DNA of 61,766 bases, counting the filler, from Syncephalis fuscata S228 (Eukaryota > Fungi > Zoopagomycota), in NCBI GenBank assembly GCA_025786725.1. It is 4 parts of 4 records of this genome, joined end to end, with 100 filler letters (N's around TTAATTAATTAA, not from the genome) between each part and the next. Parts side by side here need not be neighbours in the genome. Positions count along the whole stretch, not along the records: positions 31,539 to 49,378 come from JAHLTZ010000190.1; 3 more parts are not named here. One strand, written 5' to 3'. Positions within the stretch are counted from its first letter, which is position 1, and each line of letters begins with the position of its first letter. A program made the position numbers and the translations under genes. A model generated the notes under the pieces. That model was given only the letters and a program-made list of their open reading frames with translations. It was not told the DNA's origin and searched no databases. Shown piece after piece: positions 20,214 to 56,877 of this stretch.

Positions 20214-22819
20214 AGTAAAACACTTATATACTAGGACAAATGTTGTGCATTTTTGTCAAAAACATATCTTTACTGCTTAAGATAGCCATTGCTACTTTTT
20301 AACGACTCTATATCTTTTATGTTTTATGTTTTCTACTTTCTAATCTATTGGTGAAAGAATAGCTACAATTTAATTACGCCAAAAATTGTTACCTGAATCT
20401 GACAATTTTTATACCACTTACCTTTTTATTCAATATGAAGAGCAGTTTTATTTTGCTTGCAGCTATTGTTCTTGCTGCACAAAGCGTTGCTGCTCGCCCT
20501 AATGCTGCAAACGGCGACTGTGGATTTGCTACTTTGAACTGTGTCCGTAACACTAAAAATTGTGGTGTAACTGACCAATCTTTAAAAGTTAACGGCTCAT
20601 GTGCTAATACTATCAAAATCTCTTTTATTCATAACTTTAAGTGCAATATTTTGTACCCTATTTGTTGTGGTATAAACCAATGTAAAGCAACAGAAATAAC
20701 TCAAATACCTCCACGTGTGCCAACGCTACCTGTGCCAGCCCCATCAGCTCCAACTGTTGGACCGGTAAAGCAGCCGACTCCAGTGACAACAACATCAACT
20801 CCAGTTCTACCTGTGCCGACCCCATCGACTCCAATTGTTACTCCTCCTGCAAATGAAAACTGTGTATCTGTTGTTTTGGGCTGTTTCCGTGACACTGTAA
20901 AATGCGGTACACTTGAACAGCCTTTAAAAGTTAACGGCGTATGCGTTGATACCATCCAGGTTTCTGCCACTCATAAGCTTAAATGTGCTGCCTTGCATCC
21001 TATCTGTTGTAGATTAAACCGCTGTATAGTGAGAGAAATTACTCAAACACCTCCAAGTGTACCAGCGCAACCATCAACTCCAGTTCTACCTGTGCCAAGT
21101 CCATCAGCTCCAACTGTCGAACCAGTAAAGCAACCCGTGCCAGTAACAACAACAACTCCAGCTCTACCTGTGCCAACTCCATCAGTTCCAACTGTCGAAC
21201 CAGTAAAGCTACCTGTGCCAGTAACAACAACAACTCCAGTTCTACCTGTACCAAGTCCATCTGTTTCAACTGTTGAACCAGTAAAGCAACCCGTGCCAGT
21301 AACAACAACAACTCCAGCTCTACCTGTGCCAACTCCATCAGTTCCAACTGTCGAACCAGTAAAGCTACCTGTGCCAGTAACAACAACAACTCCAGTTCTA
21401 CCTGTGCCAGCCCCATCAGTTCCAACTGTCGAACCAGTAAAGCAACCGACTCCAGTGACAACAACATCAACTCCAGTTCTACCTGTACCGACCCCATCGA
21501 CTCCAATTGTTACTCCTCCTGCAAATGAAAACTGTGGATCTGTTGTTTTGGGCTGTTTCCGTAACACTGTAAAATGTGGTACACTTGAACAGCCTTTAAA
21601 AGTTAACGGCGTATGCGTCGATACCATCCAGGTTTCTGCCACTCATAATCTTAAATGTGCTGCCTTGCATCCTATCTGTTGCGGTATAAACCGCTGTACA
21701 ACAACAGAAATTTCTCGAACACCTCAACGTGTGCCAGTTCTACCTGTGCCAACTCCATCAGTTCCAACTGTCGAACCAGTAAAACAGCCGACTCCAGTGA
21801 CAACATCAACTCCAGTTCTATCTGTGCCAACTCCATCAGTTCCAACTGTCGAACCAGTAAAGCTACCTGTGCCAGTAACAACAACAACTCCAGTTCTACC
21901 TGTGCCAGCCCCATCAGTTCCAACTGTCGAACCAGTAAAGCAGCCGACTCCAGTGACAACATCAACTCCAGTTTTACCTGTGCCAACTCCATCAACTCCA
22001 GTTGTTACTCGTCCTCCTCCTGCAAATGCAGACTGTGGATCTGTTGTTTTGGGCTGTTTCCGTAACACTGTAAAATGTGGTGTACTTGAGCAGCCTTTAA
22101 AAGTTAACGGCATATGCGTCGATGCTCTCCAGGTCAATGCCATCCATAATCTTGGATGTGCTGCCTTGCATCCTATCTGTTGCGGTTTAAACCGCTGTAC
22201 AGCAACAGAAATTTCTCGAACACCCCCACGTGCATCAGTGTAAACATTGACCCCTGCTATTGCTACGCCGAAGCCATCAATCTAATGACTTCTAAACCAT
22301 TATAAATGCCAAATTCAGTTATTTCTACATTTATAGCATAATATTATATCACTCGTAGGCCGGTGATAATATGAATTTCAGTTATAATAAACTAATGTTA
22401 TTATTAATTTGATCATTTCCAAGTCAATTCTAATTTTATGTCAGTGATTTTATTTAGTTACATCAGCGTCAGCTTTTGTGTGCACGTTAGTACCGGTCCC
22501 TAAACTTGATGGCTATACTTACAATTCCTATTTGATAAAGCTCATACTTATAGTGTCGCTTATTAACTATACATGCAGTTTATATTATGCACTAAACCGT
22601 AATAAACATTTGTTTTATTGAACATGGGGATGGATGGTGAATGACATCAAGTTCAAAATACTCGTCATCATAGATTCATTATCTAGTATGCATATATTCA
22701 TCATTTACCTATATAACCATTACAATATATAATTATTATAAAAAAAATTGATACAATAAGTTATTTTTTATTAATTCAATAAAAAGCGACACTAGTTTAC
22801 TGCATTCCCATATTTAGTA
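20214..22819 (+). repeat. Tandem segmental duplication, copy 2
   Basis: Matches 15491-18257. Confidence 0.93.
20435..22243 (+). CDS. Secreted protein with four 8-Cys domains and P/T/V-rich linkers, 602 aa (paralog of 15712-17682)
   Basis: Same termini as the paralog, different internal repeat number. Confidence 0.92.
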   Translation: MKSSFILLAAIVLAAQSVAARPNAANGDCGFATLNCVRNTKNCGVTDQSLKVNGSCANTIKISFIHNFKCNILYPICCGINQCKATEITQIPPRVPTLPVPAPSAPTVGPVKQPTPVTTTSTPVLPVPTPSTPIVTPPANENCVSVVLGCFRDTVKCGTLEQPLKVNGVCVDTIQVSATHKLKCAALHPICCRLNRCIVREITQTPPSVPAQPSTPVLPVPSPSAPTVEPVKQPVPVTTTTPALPVPTPSVPTVEPVKLPVPVTTTTPVLPVPSPSVSTVEPVKQPVPVTTTTPALPVPTPSVPTVEPVKLPVPVTTTTPVLPVPAPSVPTVEPVKQPTPVTTTSTPVLPVPTPSTPIVTPPANENCGSVVLGCFRNTVKCGTLEQPLKVNGVCVDTIQVSATHNLKCAALHPICCGINRCTTTEISRTPQRVPVLPVPTPSVPTVEPVKQPTPVTTSTPVLSVPTPSVPTVEPVKLPVPVTTTTPVLPVPAPSVPTVEPVKQPTPVTTSTPVLPVPTPSTPVVTRPPPANADCGSVVLGCFRNTVKCGVLEQPLKVNGICVDALQVNAIHNLGCAALHPICCGLNRCTATEISRTPPRASV

Positions 22820-31538: not shown

Positions 31539-34500
31539 TTTTGAATATATAGATCGACGCACCATATTATTGCGGTCGAACGAGTGGTCCTGTGTATTTT
31601 TAGAGCAATTATCCGTAGAATTAAAAATACGGGAGTTCTAGTTTGCTGGTTATAGGGGATATTTAGGATTTCGTGAAATATGCCACTATAAACTAGTCAT
31701 CAAACTCCCGTATTTTTAACTCTACGGATAATTGCTCTAAAAATACACAGGACCACTCGTTCGACCGCAATGATATGGTGCGTCGATCTATATATTCAAA
31801 AAATCGCCAAAAATTTATCCAATGAATTAAAAATCAAAACATGCAAAAAGTGCCGTTTTTTGTATGGAGGTCCAACTCCGCGTATTTTTCACGCATTCCC
31901 ACGATTTTTGGCGATTTTTAGCATATCAGGATCGACGCGCCTGCTTCTTGCGGTTCGAACAAGTGGCACCGTGTATTTTTAGGACAAGTATCCGTGGAAT
32001 TAAAAATACGGGGAGTTGGGCCGTTTTTCCCAAAAAATCCACAAAAATCCAACAAAAATCGACCAAATATACGGCTAAAAAAGTTAATTAAAAGTTAACT
32101 AAAGTTAAGTAAAAAGTTAAGTAATATTGACTAGAAATGTAAGGGTATCCCTTGCTATTTTGTTAATAAATATAGACTAAAAGTTAACTAAAAGTTAAGT
32201 AATTAGTTAAGTAATTAACAATGTAATGATAACGTTTAACACTTAGTTAACTTGTTAATTACTTAACTAATTACTTAACTTTTAGTTAACTTTTAGTCTA
32301 TATTTATTAACAAAATAGCAAGGGATACCCTTACATTTCTAGTCAAATATTACTTAACTTTTTACTTAACTTTAGTTAACTTTTATTAACTTTTTTAGCC
32401 GTATATTTGGTCGATTTTTGTTGGATTTTTGTTGGATTTTTTGGGAAAAACGGCCCAACTCCCCGTATTTTTAATTCCACGGATACTTGTCCTAAAAATA
32501 CACGGTGCCACTTGTTCGAACCGCAAGAAGCAGGCGCGTCGATCCTGATATGCTAAAAATCGCCAAAAATCGTGGGAATGCGTGAAAAATACGCGGAGTT
32601 GGACCTCCATACAAAAAACGGCACTTTTTGCATGTTTTGATTTTTAATTCATTGGATAAATTTTTGGCGATTTTTTGAATATATAGATCGACGCACCATA
32701 TTATTGCGGTCGAACGAGTGGTCCTGTGTATTTTTAGAGCAAGTATCCGTAGAGTTAAAAATACGGGAGTTTGATGACTAGTTTATAGTGGCATATTTCA
32801 CGAAATCCTAAGATATCCCCTATAACCAGCAAACTAGAACTCCCGTATTTTTAACTCTACGGATACTTGCTCTAAAAATACACAGGACCACTCGTTCGAC
32901 CGCAATGATATGGTGCGTCGATCTATATATTCGAAAAAATCGCCAAAAATTTATCCAATGAATTAAAAATCAAAACATGCAAAAAGTGCCGTTTTTTGTA
33001 TGGAGGTCCAACTCCGCGTATTTTTCACGCATTCCCACGATTTTTGGCGATTTTTTAGCATATCAGGATCGACGCGCCTGCTTCTTGCGGTTCGAACAAG
33101 TGGCACCGTGTATTTTTAGGACAAGTATCCGTGGAATTAAAAATACGGGGAGTTGGGCCGTTTTTCCCAAAAAATCCAACAAAAATCCAACAAAAATCGA
33201 CCAAATATACGGCTAAAAAAGTTAATAAAAGTTAACTAAAGTTAAGTAAAAAGTTAAGTAATATTTGACTAGAAATGTAAGGGTATCCCTTGCTATTTTG
33301 TTAATAAATATAGACTAAAAGTTAACTAAAGTTAAGTAATTAGTTAAGTATTAAGTTAACTAATGGTAATGATAACCGTTTAACAACTTAGTTAACTTGT
33401 TAATTACTTAACTAATTACTTAACTTTTAGTTAACTTTTAGTCTATATTTATTAACAAAATAGCAAGGGATACCCTTACATTTCTAGTCAATATTACTTA
33501 ACTTTTTACTTAACTTTAGTTAACTTTTAGTTAACTTTTTTAGCCGTATATTTGGTCGATTTTTGTTGGATTTTTGTTGGATTTTTTGGGAAAAACGGCC
33601 CAACTCCCCGTATTTTTAATTCCACGGATACTTGTCCTAAAAATACACGGTGCCACTTGTTCGAACCGCAAGAAGCAGGCGCGTCGATCCTGATATGCTA
33701 AAAATCGCCAAAAATCGTGGGAATGCGTGAAAAATACGCGGAGTTGGACCTCCATACAAAAAACGGCACTTTTTGCATGTTTTGATTTTTAATTCATTGG
33801 ATAAATTTTTGGCGATTTTTTGAATATATAGATCGGCGCACCATATCATTGCGGTCGAACGAGTGGTCCTGTGTATTTTTAGAGCAAGTATCCGTAGAGT
33901 TAAAAATACGGGAGTTTGTTGCTGTTTATAGTGGCATATTTCACGAATCCTAAATATCCCCTATAACCAGCAACAGAACTCCCGTATTTTTAACTCTACG
34001 GATACTTGCTCTAAAAATACACAGGACCACTCGTTCGACCGCAATGATATGGTGCGTCGATCTATATATTCAAAAAAATCGCCAAAAATTTATCCAATGA
34101 ATTAAAAATCAAAACATGCAAAAAGTGCCGTTTTTTGTATGGAGGTCCAACTCCGCGTATTTTTCACGCATTCCCACGATTTTTGGCGATTTTTAGCATA
34201 TCAGGATCGACGCGCCTGCTTCTTGCGGTTCGAACAAGTGGCACCGTGTATTTTTAGGACAAGTATCCGTGGAATTAAAAATACGGGGAGTTGGGCCGTT
34301 TTTCCCAAAAAATCCGACAAAAATCCAACAAAAATCGACCAAATATACGGCTAAAAAAGTTAATAAAAGTTAACTAAAGTTAAGTAAAAAGTTAAGTAAT
34401 ATTTGACTAAAATGTAAGGGTATCCCTTGCTATTTTGTTAATAAATATAGACTAAAAGTTAACTAAAAGTTAAGTAATAGTTAAGTAATTAACAATTAAC

Positions 34501-37500
34501 TAAGTTGTTAACCGTTATCATTACTTAGTTAATTACTTAACTAATTACTTAACTTTTAGTTAACTTTTAGTCTATATTTATTAACAAAATAGCAAGGGAT
34601 ACCCTTACATTTTAGTCAAATATTACTTAACTTTTTACTTAACTTTAGTTAACTTTTAGTTAACTTTTTTAGCCGTATATTTGGTCGATTTTTGTTGGAT
34701 TTTTGTCGGATTTTTTGGGAAAAACGGCCCAACTCCCCGTATTTTTAATTCCACGGATACTTGTCCTAAAAATACACGGTGCCACTTGTTCGAACCGCAA
34801 GAAGCAGGCGCGTCGATCCTGATATGCTAAAAATCGCCAAAAATCGTGGGAATGCGTGAAAAATACGCGGAGTTGGACCTCCATACAAAAAACGGCACTT
34901 TTTGCATGTTTTGATTTTTAATTCATTGGATAAATTTTTGGCGATTTTTTGAATATATAGATCGACGCACCATATTATTGCGGTCGAACGAGTGGTCCTG
35001 TGTATTTTTAGAGCAAGTATCCGTAGAGTTAAAAATACGGGAGTTTGATGCTGTTATAGGGGATATTTAGGATTCGTGAAATATGCCCTATAAACTAGTC
35101 ATCAAACTCCCGTATTTTTAACTCTACGGATACTTGCTCTAAAAATACACAGGACCACTCGTTCGACCGCAATAATATGGTGCGTCGATCTATATATTCG
35201 AAAAAATCGCCAAAAATTTATCCAATGAATTAAAAATCAAAACATGCAAAAAGTGCCGTTTTTTGTATGGAGGTCCAACTCCGCGTATTTTTCACGCATT
35301 CCCACGATTTTTGGCGATTTTTAGCATATCAGGATCGACGCGCCTGCTTCTTGCGGTTCGAACAAGTGGCACCGTGTATTTTTAGGACAAGTATCCGTGG
35401 AATTAAAAATACGGGGAGTTGGGCCGTTTTTCCCAAAAAAATCCGACAAAAATCCAACAAAAATCGACCAAATATACGGCTAAAAAAGTTAATTAAAAGT
35501 TAACTAAAGTTAAGTAAAAAGTTAAGTAATATTGACTAGAAATGTAAGGGTATCCCTTGCTATTTTGTTAATAAATATAGACTAAAAGTTAACTAAAAGT
35601 TAAGTAATTAGTTAAGTAATTAACAATTAACTAATGTTAAACGTTATCAACTTAGTTAATTGTTAATTACTTAACTAATTACTTAACTTTAGTTAACTTT
35701 TAGTCTATATTTATTAACAAAATAGCAAGGATACCCTTACATTTTAGTCAATATTACTTAACTTTTTACTTAACTTTAGTTAACTTTTATTAACTTTTTT
35801 AGCCGTATATTTGGTCGATTTTTGTTGGATTTTTGTCGGATTTTTTGGGAAAAACGGCCCAACTCCCCGTATTTTTAATTCCACGGATACTTGTCCTAAA
35901 AATACACGGTGCCACTTGTTCGAACCGCAAGAAGCAGGCGCGTCGATCCTGATATGCTAAAAATCGCCAAAAATCGTGGGAATGCGTGAAAAATACGCGG
36001 AGTTGGACCTCCATACAAAAAACGGCACTTTTTGCATGTTTTGATTTTTAATTCATTGGATAAATTTTTGGCGATTTTTTGAATATATAGATCGACGCAC
36101 ATATTATTGCGGTCGAACGAGTGGTCCTGTGTATTTTTAGAGCAATTATCCGTAGAGTTAAAAATACGGGAGTTTGTTGCTGTTATAGGGGATATTTAGG
36201 ATTCGTGAAATATCCCCTATAACTAGTCATCAAACTCCCGTATTTTTAATTCTACGGATACTTGCTCTAAAAATACACAGGACCACTCGTTCGACCGCAA
36301 TAATATGTGCGTCGATCTATATATTCAAAAAATCGCCAAAAATTTATCCAATGAATTAAAAATCAAAACATGCAAAAAGTGCCGTTTTTTGTATGGAGGT
36401 CCAACTCCGCGTATTTTTCACGCATTCCCACGATTTTTGGCGATTTTTAGCATATCAGGATCGACGCGCCTGCTTCTTGCGGTTCGAACAAGTGGCACCG
36501 TGTATTTTTAGGACAAGTATCCGTGGAATTAAAAATACGGGGAGTTGGGCCGTTTTTCCCAAAAAATCCACAAAAATCCAACAAAAATCGACCAAATATA
36601 CGGCTAAAAAAGTTAATTAAAAGTTAACTAAAGTTAAGTAAAAAGTTAAGTAATATTTGACTAGAAATGTAAGGGTATCCTTGCTATTTTGTTAATAAAT
36701 ATAGACTAAAAGTTAACTAAAAGTTAAGTAATTAGTTAAGTAATTAACAAGTTAATAAGTTTAAACTTAGTTAACTTGTTAATTACTTAACTAATTACTT
36801 AACTTTAGTTAACTTTTAGTCTATATTTATTAACAAAATAGCAAGGGATACCCTTACATTTCTAGTCAATATTACTTAACTTTTTACTTAACTTTAGTTA
36901 ACTTTTATTAACTTTTTTAGCCGTATATTTGGTCGATTTTTGTTGGATTTTTGTCGGATTTTTTGGGAAAAACGGCCCAACTCCCCGTATTTTTAATTCC
37001 ACGGATACTTGTCCTAAAAATACACGGTGCCACTTGTTCGAACCGCAAGAAGCAGGCGCGTCGATCCTGATATGCTAAAAATCGCCAAAAATCGTGGGAA
37101 TGCGTGAAAAATACGCGGAGTTGGACCTCCATACAAAAAACGGCACTTTTTGCATGTTTTGATTTTTAATTCATTGGATAAATTTTTGGCGATTTTTTTG
37201 AATATATAGATCGACGCACCATATCATTGCGGTCGAACGAGTGGTCCTGTGTATTTTTAGAGCAAGTATCCGTAGAGTTAAAAATACGGGAGTTTAGTTG
37301 CTGGTTATAGGGGATATTTAGGATTCGTGAAATATCCCCTATAAACAGCATCAAACTCCCGTATTTTTAACTCTACGGATAATTGCTCTAAAAATACACA
37401 GGACCACTCGTTCGACCGCAATAATATGGTGCGTCGATCTATATATTCAAAAAAATCGCCAAAAATTTATCCAATGAATTAAAAATCAAAACATGCAAAA

Positions 37501-37930
37501 AGTGCCGTTTTTTGTATGGAGGTCCAACTCCGCGTATTTTTCACGCATTCCCACGATTTTTGGCGATTTTTTAGCATATCAGGATCGACGCGCCTGCTTC
37601 TTGCGGTTCGAACAAGTGGCACCGTGTATTTTTAGGACAAGTATCCGTGGAATTAAAAATACGGGGAGTTGGGCCGTTTTTCCCAAAAAAATCCGACAAA
37701 AATCCAACAAAAATCGACCAAATATACGGCTAAAAAAGTTAATTAAAAGTTAACTAAAGTTAAGTAAAAAGTTAAGTAATATTTACTAGAAATATAAGGA
37801 TATCCTTGCATTTGTTAATAAATATAGACTAAAGTTAATAAATTGTAATTACTTAACTAATTACTAATTTAACTAAGTTGTTAATAGTTATCATTACCAT
37901 TAGTTAATTAACTAACTAATTATTAACTAA
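31539..37930. repeat. Palindromic concatemer: ~570 bp unit alternating in orientation (~11 units, period ~1130 bp)
   Basis: The same MEVQLRVFF.. reading recurs on alternating strands (31864+, 32610-, 33755-, 34139+, 34884-, 35267+, 36014-, 36393+, 37132-); two alternating turnaround types. Confidence 0.95.
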
Positions 37931-39263
37931 TTAATTATGCTATGCTTAATAATTAGTTTATTGGTTATTTATTAATGATTACTACTGATTATTTGTTTAT
38001 ATGATTAAATAGCACTAATATTATGGTTGGCGTATTAGTGCCATTAGTAACATATGATTGTGCATTGCAGCATTGGCGCTAGATAATGCATAAACATTAG
38101 CAGTATATATGCTGGACATATCCAATTATAGTGGCGCTAGCTATCGTATGATCATAGCAACTGTGTCAACTATTAGCATTGTGTGTACACTTGCATATTC
38201 ATCAGTAATTGTATATTGGTGTATACCATACCTAAAATTTAGGATATATAAACTACGCAATTGTATAGTATTATGTAGAAGTATAACTGCTATGGTTGGA
38301 CTAGAGTATAACAGGAAGACAAATGAGTGTTTGATAAAGGATGGTTTTTTATTTGATATGATAATTATTCTACATTTATAGCAATGTTGGATATAGAGAA
38401 GAGAGAAAGTAAACCAATTATTAAGTATTTGTAAATTTGTGATAAAATGTTGTAGAGTATCTGTTGATGTCATAAACATAACAAATGTTAGCAAATCTGT
38501 TTAACATGTGTAATAGTTAGAATTAGGTAATATTAACCGTGTAAATTTGAAATTATAATGATTTTTAAATATAGTAATCATCATATAGTGAGTTGTATAG
38601 ATCTATAAATAAATTTTCAATAAGATAGCAGAATATTGATGTATATACAATACTTGTATCTGTAGCTATATCCGTTAGTATTAAAGCATCAATTGTAATT
38701 ACCCCCAAGTGCTATGATATGGATTAGAAACTGATTGTCTATCAATAGATCATTGACGCTTTATATGATTTTAGATAGTTTAACGCTTCATTATATGAGT
38801 TGACCAGTATTATAGCAAAACAGCAAATATGTTGTAGTATTTCAAGTGGATAAACACATTTATAATTGATTGATAATGTATTATTGACATTAAATGCCTA
38901 TAATACTATTATTGATACACTTATAGTTTGTCGTTATGCTTGAGCGACTATAAAACACTTTATTATTATTTACAATAAACAATATGCATTACATGTATGG
39001 CTAGTATTGATCTTATAGCCATGACCTTGATGAAGGTGTACGAATAGCAATGCCGAAATTATAGTGCATGCAGCTCAATGGAAGAATTAAGTGAAATATA
39101 TTACTAATGAAGCTACAAACAAACAAACAATAGTTCTTAATAAAGTGTTAATACTTATAATAAAATAGTGTACAAGCGAATAAGTATATAATAGGAAAGA
39201 CATAAATAACAGTCGCAAAATCACTGAGCATATATACTTAAATAGATGAGCGATATTAGTTGA

Positions 39264-40702
39264 AATTTTATTAATAATAGTGCTAGAAAACAAAAATAAA
39301 TATACTTTTGGATAGAGGAAGGCTAGGCAATTATAGCATGATATATAAAATGATAAATGTACGGTAAGAAAGTTATAAAACAACGTTGATGTTATAGTGT
39401 GCATAGTGGAATGAGCGGAATGAGTAAAGTATATTGCCGCATATAATAAATAGAATGTGTTTAGTATATCATAGAATGATATATGGTAGTGTAGAATAGA
39501 GTGGGAATGATATAGGCGAATAGAGGATATATGTGTACTGAATATATGCATCTGATAATAATCTACAATGATGATATTTGATAACTGATGTCATTCACCA
39601 CCCATTATCATGTTCAGTAGACTGGATGTTATTAAATATTAGTCATTTAACCACCAAATAACAATAAGTAATGATGTGATGATTAAATAAAATTCACCAC
39701 TTGTTTCCGTGTTCAATAGAACAAAATGTAGTCAACTACGCGAACGTTATTAAAAAAAGTCATTTGACCACCAAATCACATTGCATGTAATGATATAATA
39801 ATTAAACAAATATAATAATAAATGACATGATACACGTTGGTTCAATGAGCAGATGTTATAACAAGGTTATAATTAAAAACCAGTAGACTATTGAAAATAG
39901 ATAATCAGATAAATATACAGTGATATAGAAAACTGTTAAATGGAAAAGAATATAACATGTTGATAACATACAACCAGCTAGATCATCATATGATTATATA
40001 GCTATATGAGTAATTATATGGTATATTGTCAACCAGCTATTTTAACTATTGGACAGGTTAATATACAGCTATATGACCAACTATAAATATATATATATAC
40101 AAATAAATAAACAAACAGCTATAAGACTGTATATACCGCACTATAACTAATTTTATTTACTAATAGTTGTTTATTGTTTAGTGTGATTTGGGGCCCAAAT
40201 GATTAGTTTTAATAACATTCGCGTAGTTGAACTACATTTTGTTCTATTGAACACGGAAACAAGTGGTGAGTTTTATTTAATCATCACATCATTACATTTA
40301 TTGTTATTTGGTGGTTAAATGACTAATATTTAATAACATCCAGTCTACTGAACATGATAATGGGTGGTGAATGACATCAGTTATCAAATACTCATCATTG
40401 TAGATTTATTATCCAGATGCATATATTCAGTACACATATATCCTCTATTCGCCTATATCATTCCCACTCTATTCTACACTACCATATATCATTCTATGAT
40501 ATACTAAACACATTCTATTTATATATGCGGCAATATACTTTACTCATTCCGCTCATTCCACTATGCACACTATAACATCAACGTTGTTTTATAAACTTTC
40601 TTACCGTACATTTAGCATTTTATATATCATGCTATAATCGCCTAGCCTTCCTCTATCCAAAAGTATATTTATTTTTGTTCTAGCACTATTATTAATAAAA
40701 TT
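39264..40702. repeat. Foldback: ~520 bp inverted arms (39264-~39781 and ~40181-40702) with ~400 bp spacer
   Basis: Direct reverse-complement match, e.g. GGATAGAGGAAGGCTAGGC / GCCTAGCCTTCCTCTATCC. Confidence 0.9.
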
Positions 40703-41717
40703 GACCTATTTTGCTCATGCACATACATATATGTTTAGTAACTTTAACAAGGCTAATCGTCGCTCAACATTGGATATTTATTATATTGTATATCGCTCCG
40801 TTATAATAGCGTCAAAGCTATCCAAAACCGCTGTTTATTTGTCGCTAGCTGTTTTGGCTGTAAAGATCAGCTTATTCTGTTTATTTTATTCATATATACA
40901 TCACTATAATGTCAGCACTATTACTCATACCCTTTTCATTATACATTGTTTTGTTTCATATCTTGTTATTCTCGCTTGGCTATGCACTATTCAAAATCAT
41001 TTCCCGCTTATTTCTGGTGCTATTATTTACAAGCTGTGACTTATTGCGTTCAGCCCACTCATTGAGCTATATACACTATAATCTCAATAACGCTATCCAT
41101 AGTCTCCTCTGTATATTTGTCCTACTACATATCGTTGTATATTATAAAAGCTGTATATTTGTTACTCGCTGCATTTTATATAGTTCAATACAGCTGGTTC
41201 ATTTCACTGCTATACACATTATAGCTTTATCGCTATCATTCATATATCATCATCCCCCTATTCATTCTACTATATATTGTAGATTTTAATTCGAGTCATT
41301 TAGGTCTGTACATACTGTATGTTTATTCTCTATAGCAAATATATCAATAAATAAATCATATAACTACAGCATATTTTAATGTCCAGTAAAATCATTATAC
41401 GACATTGGAACTAGAATATTGCACTGTTGTTAAACGAGCCTCAAAAAAGTCGTACAAATGTGAAATTCCTAATTGAGGCAACAGAGCTGCAATTTTCACT
41501 TTACAAATGGCTACAAATTTTATTCATTGTCACTAGAAAGCTTTTATCTTTGATTGAATCCTAATTGTGTGCATCAACCTTTATTGCATTAGTAGAGTGA
41601 GTACGTGTGCAATCACTCATCGTCTTGCTACTCTATCGCAACTCGAGTAAGCGTGTGTATACTCGTATGACCATCCATACAACAACGCCGATACTATAGC
41701 AATATAAGGGCAACAGT

Positions 41718-44700
41718 ATGGATAACCGACAAGTAAGTGATGACTCAGGAGGACAATCGCCGCATAGACACTCCCAGTACTGACCACGTCCACTGCTAGA
41801 GATTGTCTCGTCTATTACTTCGGCGGCTAAAAGAACGAACGCGCGAGCTGAACGACCAACTAGGCAGCCGTGTACTTATAACAGGCACCAAAGGTCTACT
41901 TATAGATCGCCTACTAACCTATATAATTTCGCTTGAAGAATCTGGATCGCATGAACAGCTACAAAAAACTTGGTCCATACTGGAGCGGTAAGTTGCAAAT
42001 AACGATGACAACCATCACAGACCCACAACAGTTAGACTATGTCTTGTTAACGATGAATGGTACTGTACAGCGAAGAAGAAGGACACCAAAGCTGGTCGTC
42101 TATGTCAGCGGCTGTTAATGCGCACACAGCCAATTCGCTGTCCACTACATCCAACACCTCTTGCTCGCCGATCCACTACGAGCTACTAAATCGGCTAGGC
42201 GATGATGCTCATTCGTCGCCATCCTTGCTATCTAGCCAAGGCTATCGACACACAGTTGACTTATCCCGGTATGCAGATTCAAACTATATGATGTTCAAAC
42301 AGCTTGATCTAACAAACAGTCTTATTACACCAATGAATACCAATAGTAGTAGTAGCGCGAATAATGGTACATCACATTTATCTCTTTCATTTCGTTCCTG
42401 TCCGTTCTACACTGATCCTCAGCCACTATCAGATATAGTGTACGCGGAAGGTAAGTAAATAGATATAGCGTATTTATGTGTCACTAATTGTATCTGTCAG
42501 TATCAAATGTTAAAATGACCAGTGTGGCACGATTTTCACTTAATTCGAAGAATATTGAAACATTAACTGGTAGTTCGTAAGTTGGCATTTACTTATTTGG
42601 TGATTATAAAGTTAATAATGGATTTACTAAATAGATATGTACCAAGTCGTAAAACACCAAAATTCTCCTCTCATCGTGTTATGGTCTACTGCGTTGATGC
42701 GGACCAGTGGCGCACCATGCCACATGAGCCACTTTCGTTGGAATTTCCACCTGTAGTTGAATTATCTATTAACCATACGGTTATTCGTAAAGTAAGTGTT
42801 ATAATATGCTATAAACGCTACTAATTATAATACTGTCATTTATAGAATCTAAGAGGCATTAAAAATCGTCCAGGTACTGTCCATCCGTGGACATTACACC
42901 GCACTGCTGTTTGAAGCCAGGTGCTGTTAATCAATTGGACATTTCATATATTAATACACCCAAGGTAACTTACCACTATAAGCTAAATAGATATCATATT
43001 AATATCAATTAGAAATATGTATTTGTCGTATGCTTGTCAAAAGTAACACAAACATCGGAATTGGTTGATAAGTTAAAAGGACGGAAACCACTTGAGAAAT
43101 CCAATGTACAGCAGTTATGTAAGTAACATGTAATTACAACATATCAATTAATGTAATAATTTTATAATATTAATATCAATAGTAAATCGAATCGCCAGTG
43201 ATACCGAAATTACCACCACCTTATCCAATGTTTCTTTAAAATGCCCTGTAAGTTAGCAATAATTGTATTGATTAGTATGAACATTTATTGACTATTATCT
43301 ATAGTTGACCCATATGAGAATACAACTACCATGTCGATCACGAAAATGTCAGCATATTCAATGTTTTGATGCCACATCATTTCTTGAATTGAATGCACAG
43401 ACACCAACTTGGCAATGTCCCATCTGCAATCGATTACTACAGTCATGGAGGAATTGGTATGGGATACGTAAGTGTTATTACTAATCATTTATATAATTTA
43501 TTTACATTCTTTGACTAGCTATTTTAAAGAAATATTAGATAGCACAACCACATCAGTGGACAGTATTGTAATGGATGATCAAGGGGAATGGTCAATACGG
43601 CCTAATTCAACAGGTGCACGGACATCACCTAAAACGCCCTCTACTCGTCAAGACACCGTTGGAGGAGAAAAAAGAAAGCGGCTGCTATTTGATATTGAAG
43701 ATAATTCACTGCCATCTTCACCGACTTCACCTCGTTCTCCGTCATCTTCAATAGCGGGCAATAGTAATGGCGATACTAGTAACACATCTAATACGGCACA
43801 GATCATTGATTTGACGTTAAGTAGTAGCGAGGATGAACTTGAAGATGAATCAGAAAAGGAAATACCAGTATTGAATAAAAAGTCTAAAGCGACCAACGAG
43901 TCTATTTCTATAAAGACGGAATCACAGCTAGATTCAACGGCCACCACTCACGAAAATGGCCACGATAATAACAATAATACTGATGAAAATGAGACTGGCA
44001 ACCATAGCAGACCTAGTGACTGGATCCGACGGTATCTTGGTGGCTATGTCTCTACGCCATCCAGTTCCTCTACTGCACCCACTTCATTGCCAACAACTGT
44101 ATCAGTAACGGCTGAGGTAGTAGAACCAACTACATCGGCACCAGCACCGGTAGGGACAACAACAACATCTGAACTGTTACGTAAATTGAATAATCTTAAT
44201 GAACGTATTCAACATGCTCGAATACCTGTATCTTCAGTGTCTACAGCGGATGATGTTGCAACAAATGGTATTACAAATAATACGGGTGCAACAACACCAT
44301 CTATTTCACCTACATCGGATACGGGACAGACACAATGGTATTCACCAAATGCATCTCCTTCTTCTAATGCTAATACTAATGCTACTACTACTAATACTGC
44401 TGAAATGATACCACTTAATACAACTATTCGGCCCACATCACACGGTACAATTACGACAACACTATTGTCATCCACACTACCAGTAAATAGAAATGTATTA
44501 GATGATCGAGTGACACCGCCCACTAATAGCAGTAATGGCCATCACAGAAATACACCAACTCAGTGGTACACGCCATCAAGTGATCTGGCACAACGACAAC
44601 CACAACGCCGTCTATATAACAATACTGACAATGATGGTGGTGCAGTCTACAGGGATAGACTAGAACCGTCCCATCTATCTCTCTATTCAACCCATCCTCG

Positions 44701-44986
44701 ACATCTTTCCTATGATGAATGGTATCGCTGTACATTGCCAACACCTTCATCACCAATAGATAGTCAATTGATAAGTCAAGGATCTGATATGCTTGCTTAT
44801 TATTCATCTTATAATAATATAGCAGCATCCAATTCTCATAATACTGATTCATATCCACATCAGTATCAGCGGCCACCATTACCACCACAAACAACACAGT
44901 CGCAGTCACAACGGTATCAGCAGCAGCAGTATCAGCAGCAGCAACAACCATATCATTCGCAGTATCAGCAACATCACCGTCAATAG
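41718..44986 (+). CDS. SIZ1: SIZ/PIAS-family SUMO E3 ligase, multi-exon
   Basis: SAP-like GTKGLLIDRL; PINIT (FRSCPFY, LEFPPVVEL, RGIKNRPGT); SP-RING SLKCP..PCRSRKCQHIQCFDA..WQCPIC; SIM IIDLTLSSSEDE. Confidence 0.9.
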
Positions 44987-45101
44987 TAACGGCATCAATA
45001 CGATGGACCGTCAACCTACTATAATATTCGATGTTTTTTTGTAATAATAATAATAAATAGTAGTGTAACATTTATTCTGAAATACTAGATTAGCTAGCTA
45101 C

Positions 45102-46160
45102 TTAAGACGAGGGTGGCATGGGATGTTGGATGGCTGTATCGTAATCAGGTGGTGCTTCCTGAGGAACAGTATGAGATGGAGGCGGTCCAGCCACCGATAA
45201 AGGTGTAGAAGAGGCTATGTGTTCTGTAGCTATAGCCGATGAATTTCCTATATTATAAACAGTATATTATATTAGGTAATTAATAAAGTAATATAGCGCA
45301 CTGTATGTAGAGTTACCTGTCATGCTATTACGATTACCATTGATGCCTGGTATTGGATGATTTGTAGGAGCAGCAGTTGAAGTGGAGGCATTTGCTGCTA
45401 TTCCTTCAGCCCGTGGTGTATAGGCAGGTAACTGCTCAAGTGTATCTGGTAATTCACCAAGCTCTAACGCATCATTAATATCAATAAATAATACGTATTA
45501 TTCATTATTACCTTGAATACGTTCACGTAATTGTCTATAAATAGTGGAGAATTCAAATGCGCCTAATTATCAATGCAGTTATAGCTGTATGAATTATTAC
45601 TATACTCATTATGACCTACCTCCTTCTTTAAAGTATAATTTAACCTGCATCGCTGCCGGCAATCCACCTTGATACACCTAACAGTATTATTACAAATAAT
45701 TAAATATAGCCTATTTGCACTGTTGTAATACTTACTGGCTCACTGTACATGAATAGTAATTGGCGTTAAACCAAGGCTGATTTAACTTGCCTTCATGTAT
45801 ATTTAGCAAAGGCATCGATAATGACTGAAATCCAACTAGACTTGGCTGTGCCAAGTAAACAATCCGCTGATTCGATAAATAGACATGACCAGAAGCTGCA
45901 TTATAGCAACCGCTATATATAACAATACAAATTAGCAAGTTTAACTATTTGTGTGTTAGAGTAGACCAGTACTTGCCTACTACCAGGAAAACCACTAATA
46001 CAGCGACGATAAGTATATAGAGTTACTTGACAAGCTACAGCACTTACTTTCCATAGACTGATTCCAAACAAACGCCTGTTTTCTCAAGAAATACCTTTTC
46101 ATTAGGTAAAAGTATAATGGCAGTGCCATCGGCACTTAATGCAGCTTGGTTAATCGACAT
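45102..46160 (-). CDS. WBP2-like (GRAM/PH-like + PPxY) protein, multi-exon
   Basis: MSIN..LLPNEK, GHVYLSNQRIVY, LNQPWFNANYY, LYFKEGGAFEF, LPAY and PPDY motifs. Confidence 0.85.
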
Positions 46161-46337
46161 TGTACGCAAGAAAGATAAAGAAAGGTGTACCAAGAACAGT
46201 ATACTGTTGTGATAATGGTGGTGGTGGTGATATGTTTAAAACAAAAAAAGTGTCAATAAGAAGCAATAGACTGCAACGGTCACATGTGTAAAACATTCTA
46301 TTTATTGTTAATATATCAGCACACAAATCCGCGACTT

Positions 46338-48023
46338 CTAATGTACCCTTTGCCGTCTTGATTGTCTTGGTGTTGCTCTTACGGGTGTTGCTTCTTTGTG
46401 GGTGGGCCGGTTTTCTATTCATATCGTTAATATGGTGGTAAGTAAATAGTACAACTACAATTACCTGAATAGTCGTCGTTGTTATCGTCGTCGTCATCTT
46501 CATTGGAATATAGACGATCTTCTTGTTCATAGACACCTAATCGCCTATTCATCAATTAGTATAACTAGCACATGTATATCAAATAAATTACTTACTTTCT
46601 ACGTGCTGCAACTGATGTAGGTGTTACTTGGTGTTCAGAAAGTGTTCGTTGACGATTTAAACCATTGCTCATAGCTGTTGTCGTTGTTGTTGCACCTGGT
46701 TGTTGCTGTTGTCGTCGCCGTCTACCACTATTGGCCATTGTAGTAAATGAGAACGATTTGGTCATTGGTTGGTCATAAACTGGCACAGATGACATACTGA
46801 ATGTTCGTCGATTATTACTGTCGGAAAGTGTGCTTTGTTCTCTCGATAAAAGACCAATACTTTTGTTAACAAACTTAGTGTTATATTCGCTGTAAACTTG
46901 TCCAAATAGCAGCTGCTTGTCTTTAACGTGTTGTACATAGGTTCTACACAAATAATAAGTCTACTCAACAGTATTAGCTTAATTGTATCAATAAAAGGAC
47001 TAGCTTACCTGTAATGCTACAGCCAAGGCTACTGGAAGGAAAAAGGGCCAATTTTCGGCATTTAAGCCAAAATAAACGGCTAATTGTGGTGGTGACCACC
47101 AGCTAAAGATGATGTAACTGTTAAATATCATAATACTGGTAAATAAACAACGACTTACCAGAAAATATTGAGTGAAAATACAGGCGATCCCACATGTACA
47201 GTATATGAACCTGTCGTTCATCATCGGGTGTATACTGAATTATCCTCCATACCGGACGCCTATAATTGATCATCAGCATATGATTGCCATATACTGTTGC
47301 CACACTTACATAATAAAGCGGAATAAACGAGTACATAGACTGGATGGTTTGTCATAAACACGTTTTGTACGTACATTTGGATTTTGAATGGTTGACTAGC
47401 ATACGATGTTAATAAAGCTACTACTAACCAGCTAGCTTGCTACACTATTTGGCTTGCTTATAAATAGCACATACCTCTGCAGATGAATCAAATAGCTGAT
47501 AGTGGCGGCTGCGTGTAAACAAATAAACAGTATTGGCTAGACTTAGCACGAAAATACTACTTCTAGTAGGTTAATCTATAAGCATAGTTAGATAACAACA
47601 TGGCTGCAGTTACAGCAATCGCTGCAGTAGCAAGTACCCAGAACATAGTATTCGCATCTATCCAGCCACTTGGTACAGGTTTTCCATACCCAAATCTAAC
47701 TTGTTCAGGCGATTCTAACGAATGGCTTAGGCGTAGAAAAAGAAATGCGCCGTTAAGTATATATAGCCGCGGGCCAACTAAACAATAGATGAATAACCAT
47801 ATATGTATACACACATACAAGCCGTTAAGTTACCGCTACGCCACAAGCAATCGCCGCATTCTTACCTAAGTGTTTCTTGTAACGAGTCCCAGTCAAGTGT
47901 CTCCCAGTCCTCTTGAATGCGCATGAGCCAGTCGTGTGGCGCGGAACGAACGCGATCGCTCAACGATTCTTTACGTACTAAACGGCCACTTTCCGATAGT
48001 GACGGTGAACCCGGCTCCGTCAT
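46338..48023 (-). CDS. Nur1/Mug154-like nuclear rim membrane protein, multi-exon
   Basis: RLVRKESLSDRVRSAPHDWLM, FSWWSPPQ, VKDKQLLFGQVYSEYNTKFV. Confidence 0.75.
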
Positions 48024-48337
48024 CGTATTGATATGTTTACAGACAAAATAAAACGTATTAAGCTTACTAAACTCGAAAAGAATAACTACGTGGCGGAGTC
48101 GTGTAGCAAAAGAAAGCGGCTGACTACGCTGCACACCAGTAAAAGAACGAAAATAGTACGAGCGTGTTTTGTGGTGTGATGAGTGGGGGTGGTGTGGTAA
48201 AATCAGTCTTAAATTATTGATTGCAGATCTGAATAAATTAAAAATTACTTACTGCTACAGTACCTGCTAGATTTATACAGCATATCATCTGTATTTACGC
48301 GTACGTAAAAATATAGCTCTACGAAGCAAAAAGGTAT

Positions 48338-48410
48338 TGCCTTCTGGCGGAATCGAACCGCCGACCTTCTGCTTACTAGGCAGACGCTCTGCCAACTGAG
48401 CCAAGAAGGC
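48338..48410 (-). tRNA. tRNA-Thr(AGU)
   Basis: GCCTTCTTGGCTCAGTTGGCAGAGCGTCTGCCTAGTAAGCAGAAGGTCGGCGGTTCGATTCCGCCAGAAGGCA; full cloverleaf. Confidence 0.97.
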
Positions 48411-48442
48411 AAGTGTATTGCATTCGCTTGTTTCGAAGCCGG

Positions 48443-48456
48443 TTTTAAATATATAT
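48443..48456 (-). promoter_or_regulatory. TATA-like element upstream of tRNA-Thr (-46..-33)
   Basis: Identical to 1540-1553. Confidence 0.6.
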
Positions 48457-49378
48457 GGCAAAAATATTGGACTTGTTTTGCTAAAAATAGAACTTAACGA
48501 GTAGCTGATTTTTAATTCTATACTCTATCGTATTCTACTATGCAACATTATATTATTTGGCCTAACTGAATATACAGATATATATTTTTTACTTGTAACA
48601 ATATAATTTAAGACAAAAAATGGCAAATGTAGATTATATCACTATTAAATCAGTAATGATACAAATGGTGTTAATTAACAAGCATTGTGTAGTGGAACTA
48701 ATATATTAACAATATTGATAAGTGGGTAAAAAAATAACTAATTAATATGTAAATCAAAATAGCTAAATAAGGTATTGCACATAAAGAGATTATAAATAGA
48801 CTAGTTAATACCAAATAATTATTAGGTTGCTATATGGTATTGGTATTTTTATAGAAAGACTGTTTTCTAAATACAATGGCTATCTATTAAGTTTTTAGTG
48901 ACGTATAAATAATGTTATCATTGTTTTTTAATAATGCAAACAAAGACACAATAATACTTTAGTAGTAGATAGATAAATAGTATGAGTATGTTGATTACCT
49001 GATATTGTTTATTAGCTATATTTATGAATGTGTATTACGCCCAATCTTTTTAAAAGTTTCTATTAGTTGAGACAAATGTACGAATAGTGTATAAACAATG
49101 CTAATACATTAACTTTATATCTATAAACTAGGGCAATAGGTAAGCAAGAAACGGATTGTATAAGCCAAAAAAACGATAGTTTAATAATTTGCATTGTCTT
49201 TTATTCCTAGTCTATTCGCTTTATATTAATATGTTTTTAAATTTGTTATTTCTATAAATACCCACCGCTTGGTTTAAGTATCACCATAGTCATAATAGCT
49301 GATTTTAGCTAATTCAGTCATAATTGGCTATAAATAACCAACCCAGTAATACTTTTAATGATGCAATGAGTTTACTCA

Positions 49379-49517: not shown

Positions 49518-52500
49518 CTATCCTGAGCGTACGATATGTTGTCTTTTTACCGCCTTTTGTATCGCTTCTAGTCGCTGTAAAAACTCCTCAGCTGCTGGTA
49601 CTGTTATATTATCGCTATCAGCTGGCATAGTCGTTGTTATTGGATGACGTCCATATACAGAGAAGAAAGGTGTAATACCAGTAGTAGCGTTAGTACTATT
49701 GTTATAGGCAAATTCTAATGCAGGTAAGTATTTATCCCAATCATCTTGTTGTTGGCTAATAACATGACGTAACATTTCTTCGATGGTTCTGTTGGTTCGC
49801 TCAGTCTGGCCGTCAGTCTGTGGATGATTTGCAGTTGATCTGGCTAATTTAGTACCGGTAAATTCAAATAAGGCTTCCCAGAATCGGCTAGTAAATCGTG
49901 GGTCACGATCAGAGATTATGGATCGTGGAAGACCATGTAGACGATATACATGGTCGAAGTATAGTCGTGCGGTGTCAACAGCTGTGACAGTGTTGGTAGT
50001 AGGCACGAAGTGGGCTTGTTTACTAAAGCGGTCAACTACTACCATTAACGCATCTGCACCTTTTTCAGTGAGTGGTAGATGTGTAATAAAATCCATACTA
50101 ACTGAGTCCCATGCATGTGCAGGTATTTCAAGTGGTTGTAATAAGCCACCTGGTCGTCGATTAGTGGCCTTATTACGTTGGCAAGTATCGCAGGAAGTGA
50201 CATAGCGGTGGACGGTGTTGTGTAGTGATGGCCAGTAAAAATGGCGATGAATAGCCAGGTATGTTTTATCTACACCTAGATGGCCGGCTACGATGGCATC
50301 GTGATGATCGTGTAGTATATCTTGACGTAATTGGTTATTTTTAGGTACACATAATCGATCACCGTTGAAATATAACAATCCATCAGTTAGTCGATACTTG
50401 ACTAACTTGGTACGAAGAGCTGGAAGTGGCGTTGTCGTATTAAGCTGGGCGTATATTTCACCAAAGTCAACATCGTTGGCGTACAAGTTTTTAATTTGAT
50501 CAATATATGTAAAACTGACAGTAGTTAAACTGGACAGTTGTAAATCAGGCCGTCTGGATAATGAATCGGCTACAATATTGTTTTTCCCGGGCTTATATTC
50601 GATCAATACGTCATATTCTTGTAATAGTTCTGACCATCTTGCTTGTCTGGTTGATAAATTCGGTTGACTCTGGAAGTACTGCAAGGTTTTATGGTCAGTA
50701 TACGCGTGAAATGACGATCCATGTAAGTAGTGGCGCCAAATCTTTAAAGCATCTATTAATGCTAATAGTTCTTGTTCATGTACCGGATAATTGCGTTCAG
50801 CGGGCTTCATTTTGCGCGAATGATAAGCAATGGGGTGCCAATGGCCATCACGATCTTGCTGCAACAAGGCAGCACCTACAGCAAAGCCAGAAGCATCGGT
50901 TTCTACACGGAAAGGCTGATGTACGTCGACTATTTGTAATACTGGAGCTTGGGTCATTGTCTTCTTTAGTATATCAAATGATTTTTGAGCTTCAATGGTC
51001 CATAAGAAACGACGATCTTGACATAGTAGATCGGTAAGTGGTGTGGCTATAGCAGAGTAATTTTTAATAAACTTTCTATAGTAGTTGGCCAAGCCTGTAA
51101 AAGCGCGTATATCAGTGACGTTTCGTGGTGTAGGCCAATCAGAAATGGCCTTTATCTTAGCTGGATCAGCTTTTACACCATTAGCACATAGCAAATGGCC
51201 TAAATATTCAACTTCATCCTTAAATAATTCACATTTTGACCATTTGGCGTATAAGTGGTTGTCGCGAAGTATTTGTAATACTTGGCGTAGGTGTCGTTCG
51301 TGGTCTTCTGGTGTTTTACTGTAGATGAGAATATCGTCCAAATAGACAATAACACATTTGTCTAGTAATGGCCTAAATAGATAGTTTACCAGTGTTTGAA
51401 AACTGGATGGTGCATTACTTTGACCAAAACTAACTACTAGCCATTCAAAGTGACCATAGCGGGTGCGAAAGGCCGTCTTGGGTATATCCTCTTCTACTAC
51501 ACGTAGTTGATGATAAGCAGAGCGTAGATCTATCTTAGAAAAGACAGTTGCGCCTAACACTTGGTCGAATAAATCTTCAATCCTTGGCAATGGGTACTTG
51601 TTCTTGATAGTGATTTTATTCAGCGCTCGATAATCAACACACATGCGCATACCACCATCTTTCTTCTTGACGAAAAGAACAGGCGCACCGTAGGGCGATA
51701 TACTAGGACGAATATATCCCGCGTCAAGTAATTCGGTAAGTTGTGTTTTAAGTTCTTTAAGTTCCAGAGGGGACAATCGGTATAAGGCGTTACTGGGTGG
51801 TGTTGCGCCTGGTATCAAATCGATACGATGATCTAATCCATCACGTTTTGGCGGCAATTGTTTCGGTAGTTTGTCGGGAAATACGTCAGCAAAGTCGTTG
51901 CGTAATCCAGTCAATACTGGAGTGATGGATGGGTCATTTGAGTGATTAGCAGCTTCATTTAGCGGATTATCGGCTGGTCGTACAATGGCTAGGTGTAATT
52001 CATCTGTTCGTTTAGCATAGCGTTTAAATTGTAAGGCAGATAATGGCAATATGGTTGGTTGTCTATGTGCATTTGCTTGCCATACAATGTGTCGATTATC
52101 ATGCATAAACGTAACAGTGTTAATTAACCAATCTATCTGTGGATTATAGCGGGCTAGCCACGGTTTACCGAGTATTACGTCGTGTTCTAAAGGAACAACC
52201 AAAAACGATAAACGGTCTTTGTAACCAGTGGAAGTAAGGAGCGCACCAGCCAGTTGGCGGTCACACGTATACGAACGGCCATCTGCCACGTGTACGGTCG
52301 ATGGGTATTTAACTTTATGGGTGTGTGCGCGAATATGTTTCACAAGATTTGCGGATACAAAGTTATCAGCTGCTCCACTATCTATTAGTACCGTAACTTT
52401 TCTACCTAATAAACGAGCATTGATACGTAATAAATCGTGAGCGTGTGGATATTTTGACAATAAACTTTGTTCCTTTAAAAGTGCATCAGTGTCATCAACA

Positions 52501-52664
52501 ACATTAGCATGAGGAAATAATGGCGCAGAAACAAGCAATTCATCATCAGAAGTAAGCGAGAGAAGATCGGGGGTGGCATCAACAGAAATAGTATTTAGTT
52601 GGGCACCAGTAGGTTGTGATGCTGACACTACTGGTGCTGGACTTTTCCCGTATTCAAAGGACAA
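49518..52664 (-). CDS. pol: Pol polyprotein (protease, RT, RNase H, integrase) of element 1
   Basis: [44 protein letters not shown]. Confidence 0.95.
52576..52649 (-). promoter_or_regulatory. -1 ribosomal frameshift signal of element 1
   Basis: GGGAAAA, 5 nt spacer, 10-bp stem GCACCAGTAG/CTACTGGTGC, loop GCATCA complementary to downstream TGATGC. Confidence 0.8.
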
Positions 52665-53811
52665 AAACGCATGATGTGGCCATATTGGCGACAGCGGAAA
52701 CAGCCGCCGTTTTGTCGTAACGTTTCGCGTTCAGCATCAGTGAGTGGGGTAACCGATTAATGGTGTCTAGTTCCATTGGTATAGGGCCATTTCTTGGTTG
52801 TGTGTTAATCGGAGGGCGAAACTGTTGTTGTTGCGTTGGACGAGGTGTGTTATGGCGAACGTTGTTAGTTGATGATTTGCCAATGTACTTGCGTAACGAA
52901 TCAAAATGAGTAGCCACTTCTATGGCTGATTGTAATGTAGACGGTGTAGCTTTTTGTACTTCGTATTTAACTTCGTGATTCAGTCCATTAATAAACATAA
53001 TACGTAAAGCTAACTGCCACATTTCGGAATCAGGCATAGGAAAAGTGTGCCTTAAATTGTTAAATTCTAACGTATAATCATTGACACTTTTGTTGGCTTG
53101 TCGTAACATGTGAAGACGACTAAAAGCGTCTTCTTCTACCGAAGTACCGGGACAGATGTGTTGGCGTAGTGCGTGAGCAAACGCACTCCAAGTGGTATAT
53201 GGATGACTATAGTCACCGTCAGAGTGAATAGTATTACTCTGCCACCAACTAGAGGCAGTGCCATCTAAATAAGTGGCGGCTACTTCGATGCGTTCAATTT
53301 CATCAGGGATATACCTGACATATTGCCGTGCACGGTACAACCAAGTCTCTACTGAAATATCCTTATCATTGCCGTTGTATCGTGGCGGGGCAGATGGACG
53401 AGCAGTAGGAGGGGCAGTGACAGAAGTAGATGGAATAGCGGCAATAGCAGCGGCAGTATTGGCAGCGGCAGTAACAACAGCATCGGCAGTAGCAGCATTA
53501 TTTTGGGACACAATTTGCGTTACCAAACTTGAAATAAAGTCAGCGTTGGTAACGAAACTTGTGTTAGGCAATTCTGGGTTCATAATGGGTGTTATTTCTT
53601 CTTGAGTATCAGTAGTGTATTCGTTCGTGTGGCTTGTGATCGGTGGTTCGTACTGGGTATCGGTGTATTCGTTCGTGTGGCTTGTGATCGGTGGTTCGTA
53701 CTGGTTATCTGGGTATCGAAAGGTTACTGGTGGATCTTGGATGAGTTCGTCGGCGAAAGATTGACGGGCTTGTTCGTGGTCGAAGTATTTCGCACCACGT
53801 CGTTGGTTCAT
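52628..53811 (-). CDS. gag: Gag of element 1 (one C missing near 52746)
   Basis: [18 protein letters not shown]; adding one C restores the zinc knuckle [14 protein letters not shown]; internal 14-aa duplication [14 protein letters not shown]. Confidence 0.88.
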
Positions 53812-53847
53812 ATCACTGTAAGTCAAGGCAACGAGGTGGATAGGTTT

Positions 53848-53866
53848 AAACTACCCGTTGCTACCA
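53848..53866 (-). promoter_or_regulatory. Primer-binding site (initiator tRNA-Met type)
   Basis: TGGTAGCAACGGGTAGTTT 2 nt inside the LTR; the same 18-mer occurs at 57059-57076. Confidence 0.8.
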
Positions 53867-56784: not shown

Positions 56785-56877
56785 CGTGTACTATATACTG
56801 AATCGTAATTTTAAAACAGCGGTGCTTATTTTCAAACACTGATAAGCAAAAATAAAATAAAATTGAAAAGAGGACAA

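Follow-up and report, generated by a model that had tools for sequence, protein, structure and literature searches.

What kind of element closes a contig in which one short unit folds back on itself over and over again? The question is raised by positions 31,539–49,378 of the Syncephalis fuscata S228 DNA analysed here (the window, 61,766 nucleotides, filler included), which make up the complete contig C102 (G000:C102, GenBank JAHLTZ010000190.1) of a 29.4 Mb genome assembly of 371 contigs. The first 6.36 kb of this contig are an array of alternating inverted repeats, which the original prediction had taken for a candidate hairpin-type telomere or rolling-hairpin element. We arrive, with slightly more confidence than doubt, at a different reading: judged from sequence, the array may belong to a high-copy interstitial palindromic satellite, whose arrays likely form centromere cores and whose loops would be flipped by exchange between the arms.

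The monomer consists of two inverted arms of ~520 bp each, 97–100% complementary, joined by two fixed imperfect loops, a G+C-richer turn (G loop) and an AT-rich turn (A loop). A unit alternating head-to-head and tail-to-tail had been described, and all turns named for it were located as claimed, the AT-rich ones near 32235, 33380, 34510, 35640, and 36760; a final AT-rich half-turn lies near 37890. Two 16-mers present at 33361 and 37887 confirm that the AT-rich turn occurs both ways. The array begins at the first base of C102 and does run off the contig end. Its best inverted self-match reaches 9583 bits, versus at most 42 bits in 30 dinucleotide shuffles, and 63 near-complete arms from 10 contigs differ from each other by ~3%, assembly error included. 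No open reading frame of at least 120 amino acids exists within the array, in line with the non-coding unit that had been proposed, and an Rfam scan of the array returned nothing at gathering score (14 matches, all to sub-threshold microRNA hairpin models). Run X5, the RNA nature of which is a guess, scarcely covers the array, which says nothing on expression. One structural claim failed, namely the decay of the innermost unit into the adjoining DNA: the innermost arm of C102 is 95.7% identical to the reference arm, the border is sharp, and no unit sequence follows further inward. Tandem, homogeneous, non-coding monomers at several loci, with long inverted segments inside the monomer, are properties of a satellite, and the unusual satellite listed among the earlier options fits these data. 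Every arm also carries an older, decayed palindrome (Table 1), in which we infer the trace of an earlier fold-back.

The array is present in four runs of one 2017 sample and in one 2019 run (X6) of a different sample from a different study. The 2017 sample may be the source of the assembly and is not independent of it. X6 is rich in C>T changes and presumably represents a bisulfite-type library. The X6 contig across the A loop has a depth of 1518, versus 4.9–7.4 for three nearby pieces, and in two samples the depth of the array lies orders above that of the neighbouring gene, which does not equal true copy number. Likewise to be read as very rough, and not as true copy number, is a total of 200–300 monomers (240–350 kb) versus ~32 that are assembled. 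A polymorphism at position 33121 is common to both samples. The array is real.

Folding is predicted for both kinds of loop, each of which is an imperfect palindrome; for the G loop at 32770..32839, stems included, the predicted hairpin has −38.4 kcal/mol (z −12.6). This turn is the reverse complement of the one at 31638–31701 save for one inserted base, as had been pointed out. Poxvirus and parvovirus ends occur as such flip/flop isomers, and imperfect junction palindromes in flip and flop form, as in parvovirus-like elements, are found here as well. Several turns of C102 had been suspected to be hybrids of both isomers, and this caveat proved justified. In contigs of the presumed source sample (runs X2–X4) the G loop shows no substitution at 10% or more, and arm variants reach 14–48%; this argues for a single G-loop sequence and makes the hybrid loops of 33915..37355 likely consensus artefacts from read pile-up and polishing. 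Clean loops in both orientations occur on contigs other than C102, even within single contigs. Both loop forms are supported, but hairpin ends are not required for them.

Flip and flop loops follow no fixed order. Both loops are clean in 26 of the 63 arms, and the four combinations of sides occur 8, 6, 5, and 7 times (p = 0.70). Neighbouring loops of the same kind are flipped in 16 of 32 cases across all contigs having at least two turns, and in 10 of 17 cases in five contigs judged to be of low depth (with looser loop calls). In a simple model of read pile-up over an unflipped repeat, apparent flips do not exceed 7% (28% if the reads are short). No flipped neighbours would be expected of a plain direct repeat, and the observed rate therefore suggests that rolling-circle copying of one circle is not the sole process. 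Variants in the arms close to a loop show partial linkage to the side of that loop and none to the far loop (uncorrected p 0.001–0.02), at arm positions 19 (p = 0.007), 61 (p = 0.001), and 504 (p = 0.001), values that are uncorrected for the many columns tested; such linkage to the near loop only is expected if exchanges fall inside the arms. Judged by eye, the loop order is only partly mirror-symmetric about individual turns, and allele sharing among adjacent arms is without clear signal of whole-arm copying.

Within the genome, the unit is found on 10 contigs and no others. C320 carries 8 arms between two flanks, i.e. an internal array. C344 (49 kb) has an array at its start and an array junction at its end, so that two arrays lie 45 kb apart; its interior holds a decayed junction pair, with a fragment that we take from its motif to be LINE-like, between 3.3-kb inverted flanks of 96.7% identity. 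C325 (83 kb) has an array at one end and a different repeat family, that of contig C253 (see below), at the other. C102, C173, C24, and the right side of C320 have a flank in common at 99% identity or more and hence represent one locus, the four redundant contigs of which differ in array length. Distinct flanks number 12, counting C224, C279, and C369, which break off within a flank; at least 12 flanks correspond to about 6 or more arrays, without stray copies elsewhere. Polarity is fixed at every array, the AT-rich end facing the flank (C34 has a variant junction). The AT-rich flank family is separate from the array unit and found only beside arrays or array remnants. Flanks extend over 2–8 kb, are gene-free at 21–35% GC, and are followed by ordinary genes, whose names, apart from zf-MIZ, are presumed from their translations. 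Several of them contain decayed palindromes of 470–550 bp at 71–76%, and the flanks form pairs or groups of close resemblance (e.g. C344a/C369, 98% over 3.2 kb; C320L/C325, 92%; C201/C311, 90%). A chain of contigs with two distant arrays was not obtained among the ends compared in the 371-contig assembly. As an observation in its own right, C320 starts with a second satellite (L043:1650-3693), comprising 128 copies of a 16-mer that match at 94%.

Does this genome need hairpin telomeres at all? It encodes a TERT (Table 1), predicted by script as a chain of 27 short GT-AG exons that stays open for 970 amino acids and contains motifs T, 1/2, A, B', C, D, and E. Patterns of TTAGGG x3 and GGGNNN x5 have no matches in the genome, the only end found being shorter: a looser telomere pattern gave 44 matches, one of which lies at the very end of contig C253 (6,744 bp). 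This contig leaves its repeat unit at GGGTT and continues AGGGTTAGGGTTTA (...GGGTT-AGGGTT-AGGGTT-TA), and the same site continues differently in an internal copy and in the copy on C325. Repeat addition at a seed is a signature of telomerase, and the departure of C253 at GGGTT, where other copies differ, suggests that TTAGGG was added there by telomerase. Thus, it is C253, and not the array, that has short G-rich repeats reaching the end in 5′ to 3′ direction. A period-6 GG pattern gave no telomeric case among the matches listed (100 of 449), and all 16 matches to a period-5 pattern belong to a dispersed minisatellite. C253 does not match the array period; members of its family (86–93% identity) are located toward the end at the 3′ termini of C35, C290, and C325, and the family is likely the true subtelomeric one. 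The unit of this family (L189:1-6744; also L042, L121, L143) measures ~5.8 kb, is tandem, and includes a Pro-Ala-rich CACCAG repeat.

A hairpin telomere had been our initial reading, then held to be the more probable one; it was dropped on the TTAGGG end of C253 and the separate repeat family found there. The telomere headline of the original prediction fits poorly with these data and with the internal array of C320 and the two-sided C344, and we regard it as weak. The only tyrosine recombinase seen is that of a DIRS element, no search aimed at protelomerase having been made. The arrangement of C325, C344, and C253 fits internal arrays that break the assembly. We therefore consider it quite probable that the arrays are interstitial, and improbable that they are terminal at some ends. 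An interstitial array in a genome with telomerase repeats at its ends is the outcome that the original prediction had itself named as its opposite; it is largely what we see, even if some arrays could still be terminal.

The case for centromeres is circumstantial and draws on few loci, gene-free AT-rich look-alike flanks, array size, a CenH3-like gene, and the DIRS element. A gene-free, AT-rich, and retroelement-rich region, as in regional centromeres, is what surrounds the arrays. The DIRS-type retrotransposon has reverse transcriptase, RNase H, Dam, and tyrosine recombinase domains and split direct repeats. Its three full copies are 99.9% alike, and all three sit in AT-rich parts of arrays or in junctions; a partial copy lies on C75. 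The element is likely targeted to the arrays and recently active. An intron-containing histone H3 variant gene (Table 1) has a long N-terminal tail and a long loop 1, which we take to be hallmarks of CenH3. Divided among about 6 or more arrays, some 200–300 monomers would make each array tens of kb long, which is the size of regional centromeres. On balance, we put the chances for and against a centromeric role of the arrays as even.

Several observations weigh against an interstitial centromeric satellite. Nine of the 10 array contigs end in array. The TTAGGG end is a single one of 18 bases on a small contig, a telomere-like short repeat occurs at 0 of 108 sampled ends of larger contigs, and the C253 family could also be internal. 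Contigs with unlike interiors (C34, C224, C279, C334) have flanks that are nearly the same (97–99.5%), a convergence also typical of subtelomeres. From the flank that it shares with C320, C102 extends through 11 arms and meets no second flank, but C320 has only 8 arms, so C320 may be misjoined; likewise, C344, C201, and C34 may be misassembled at their identical 4.5-kb DIRS copy. The order of flip and flop comes from consensus contigs and not from single molecules.

In one alternative, arrays sit at some of the chromosome tips, whether or not TTAGGG lies beyond them, and grow by 3′ fold-back at a loop and copying, as in SIRIS (see below), some possibly as closed hairpins. Contig ends in array, fixed polarity, converging flanks, and the rarity of TTAGGG ends in the assembly would all follow, as would nested palindromes and the 3.3-kb inverted duplication in C344, and fold-back would likewise yield mixed loop orientation. 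However, TERT is open and TTAGGG was added on another repeat family; C325 and C344 would have to be minichromosomes of 50–90 kb; the C320 array is internal; and a telomere-like loose end is absent among the loose ends listed (24 of 307). We consider such end caps rather improbable. Alternatively, the same interstitial satellite may have no centromere role and consist of heterochromatic blocks into which retroelements are drawn and which spread together with their flanks. At least 12 flanks for about 6 or more arrays without stray copies, and arrays of regional-centromere size, speak against this explanation. The structural evidence for an interstitial satellite serves it equally, two arrays lie as close as 45 kb on C344, and, in the available part of a 325-genome atlas preprint (10.64898/2026.09.17.752431), satellite centromeres occur in 0 of 49 fungi, which counts against our own reading too. 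We judge a satellite without centromere role to be unlikely.

Two further explanations concern the origin of the array as such. It might be an integrated concatemer of a free ~570-bp hairpin-capped (dog-bone) replicon, perhaps still at high copy: the monomer is formally its opened form, both loops are predicted to fold and are seen in flip and flop form, and depth in the runs is high. Such a replicon would need its own Rep, polymerase, or reverse transcriptase, but the array has no coding capacity for one and no viral contig matches it, so the rolling-hairpin or integrated replicon of the original prediction finds no support. All 6 of 6 metagenome matches span 19–22 bases only and are chance matches in GC-rich DNA, and old common flanks with DIRS insertions argue for long chromosomal residence. 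This origin appears very unlikely. An artefact of library or assembly (amplification chimera, missed adapters, or tiling of short palindromic reads) would account for the hybrid loops of C102 and for four redundant contigs with one flank and unequal array length. It is contradicted by the same two junctions in every copy, by the 2019 sample with its contig across the A loop and the polymorphism it shares, by the inner decayed palindrome, and by the DIRS insertions. Amplification chimeras, against which a caveat had been raised, are hence unlikely, and artefacts of any of these kinds are most improbable.

Under the favoured reading of an interstitial, likely centromeric satellite, the monomer would have arisen by repeated fold-back duplication, as is suggested by the older palindrome inside each arm and the decayed palindromes in the flanks. 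Strand exchange between the two arms flanking a loop, by recombination, cruciform resolution, or template switching, would invert that loop independently of the others. Such exchange would keep the arms near-identical and leave the loops imperfect. Arrays tens of kb long would break the assembly and thereby look terminal.

The positions of the features discussed are listed in Table 1. The first gene inward, 3.6 kb from the array, encodes a SIZ/PIAS-type SUMO ligase. The inverted repeats between this gene and the array possibly represent a miniature inverted-repeat transposable element (MITE) or a fold-back element.

Table 1. Positions of the array, its parts, and associated features; coordinates without contig name refer to the window.
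Feature	Coordinates	Strand	Remarks
Palindromic satellite array	31539..37900	.	11 full arms and one partial arm in alternating direction; period ~1,130 bp; truncated by the start of C102
Reference arm, G loop to A loop	31700..32225	+	~525 bp
Older, decayed palindrome within every arm	31703..32017	.	315 bp, 70% self-complementary
G loop, one orientation	31636..31704	.	~70 bp imperfect palindrome
G loop, opposite orientation	32770..32839	.	agrees with raw-data sequence
Further G+C-richer turns	33915-33978, 35044-35106, 36173-36234, 37293-37355
A loop, AT-rich imperfect palindrome	33322..33434	.	~110 bp
Other A loop copies	32184-32289, 34459-34563, 35589-35696, 36713-36812
Hybrid stretch	33915..37355	.	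four G loops and three A loops, mostly mixing both orientations
Array junction and start of AT-rich flank	37900..38650	.	78-84% alike at other arrays
Pair of 520-bp inverted repeats	39264..40702	.	96%; dispersed AT-rich family at many contig ends, not array-specific
SIZ/PIAS-type SUMO ligase gene	41547..44986	+	intron-containing; zf-MIZ 43305-43430; spliced contig in run X5
DIRS-type retrotransposon, 4.5 kb	C201:365577-370102 (L017:578-5103); C344:44452-48975; C34:2477-6910
TERT gene	C328:677610-681960 (L031/L032)	minus
H3 variant gene	C157:287.1-287.9 kb (L183)	minus	duplicate on C65

Elsewhere in the window, two tandem genes (15640-17682 and 20363-22243) encode secreted-type Pro/Val/Thr-rich repeat proteins with cysteine-rich modules. 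Positions 49518-56790 hold two retrotransposon frames, which we take from their motifs to be Ty3/Gypsy-like pol and gag, and a 23-bp tandem repeat of 7.7 copies (56878-57051) adjoins the gag frame. ARAGORN predicts a candidate tRNA of selenocysteine type with anticodon TCA at 7913-7999; some early-diverging fungi use selenocysteine.

A literature search, with most subscription papers outside its scope, returned no description of this satellite. Closest in build are Tribolium satellites, namely the 1,061-bp major satellite of T. brevicornis with inverted segments of ~470 bp and the 704-bp TmSat2 of T. madens with imperfect inverted repeats of ~300 bp (PMC13081366). As far as the available part of that description goes, they resemble the Syncephalis array in their tandem, non-coding monomers of long inverted halves (here ~1.1 kb), in a putative (peri)centromeric position, and in predicted hairpins, and loop flipping is not reported for them. 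In contrast, the Syncephalis monomer belongs to a fungus, is palindromic as a whole, has arms ~3% apart (assembly error included), and has loops that are flipped independently. Among fungi, the HIR centromeres of Candida tropicalis, built with inverted repeats, (PMC7292649) and the centromeres of Mucor circinelloides (10.1101/706580) share with the arrays, in the available parts of these sources, a gene-free AT-rich region, look-alike flanks, a centromere-restricted retroelement (in Mucor Grem-LINE1), and scaffolds that end there. However, both have a single core instead of a satellite array, and Mucor is without CENP-A, unlike Syncephalis with its CenH3-like gene.

Hairpin telomeres, listed for bacteria, phages, and poxviruses (e.g. 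Borrelia and phage N15) in the part of the source available (PMC13685816), likewise join identical arms through imperfect palindromes that exist as two inverted-complement forms. Each replicon end has a single junction in those systems, which possess a dedicated resolvase or Rep protein, whereas the Syncephalis array has many internal junctions and no coding sequence, in a genome with telomerase ends. In PAL survivors of budding yeast, fold-back synthesis (SIRIS) starts from a short inverted repeat, which folds back, is copied, and leaves an imperfect spacer between identical arms (PMC4981268). By analogy, a fold-back of SIRIS type is a likely route to the Syncephalis monomer. According to the available text of the same report, PAL palindromes form only where telomerase has been lost and are duplications of unique chromosome ends (PMC4981268), unlike Syncephalis with an open TERT, a TTAGGG-extended end, and a fixed repeat unit.

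Our most specific proposal, which we put forward tentatively and with rather more doubt than confidence, is that Syncephalis centromeres may be arrays of a wholly palindromic 1.1-kb monomer, the loops of which would flip continually via exchange of inverted arms. Fragility is the rule for long inverted repeats in eukaryotes when the two copies are nearly identical and lie ~100 bp apart, so the maintenance of hundreds of such repeats in arrays already sets this genome apart. Should the arrays prove to be centromeres, Syncephalis would have a satellite centromere in a kingdom with none among the 49 fungi covered in the available part of the atlas (10.64898/2026.09.17.752431). It would then be the most extreme natural case for the non-B-DNA (cruciform or hairpin) model of centromere specification and would put that model to a natural test, and loop orientation offers a built-in readout of recombination within the array.

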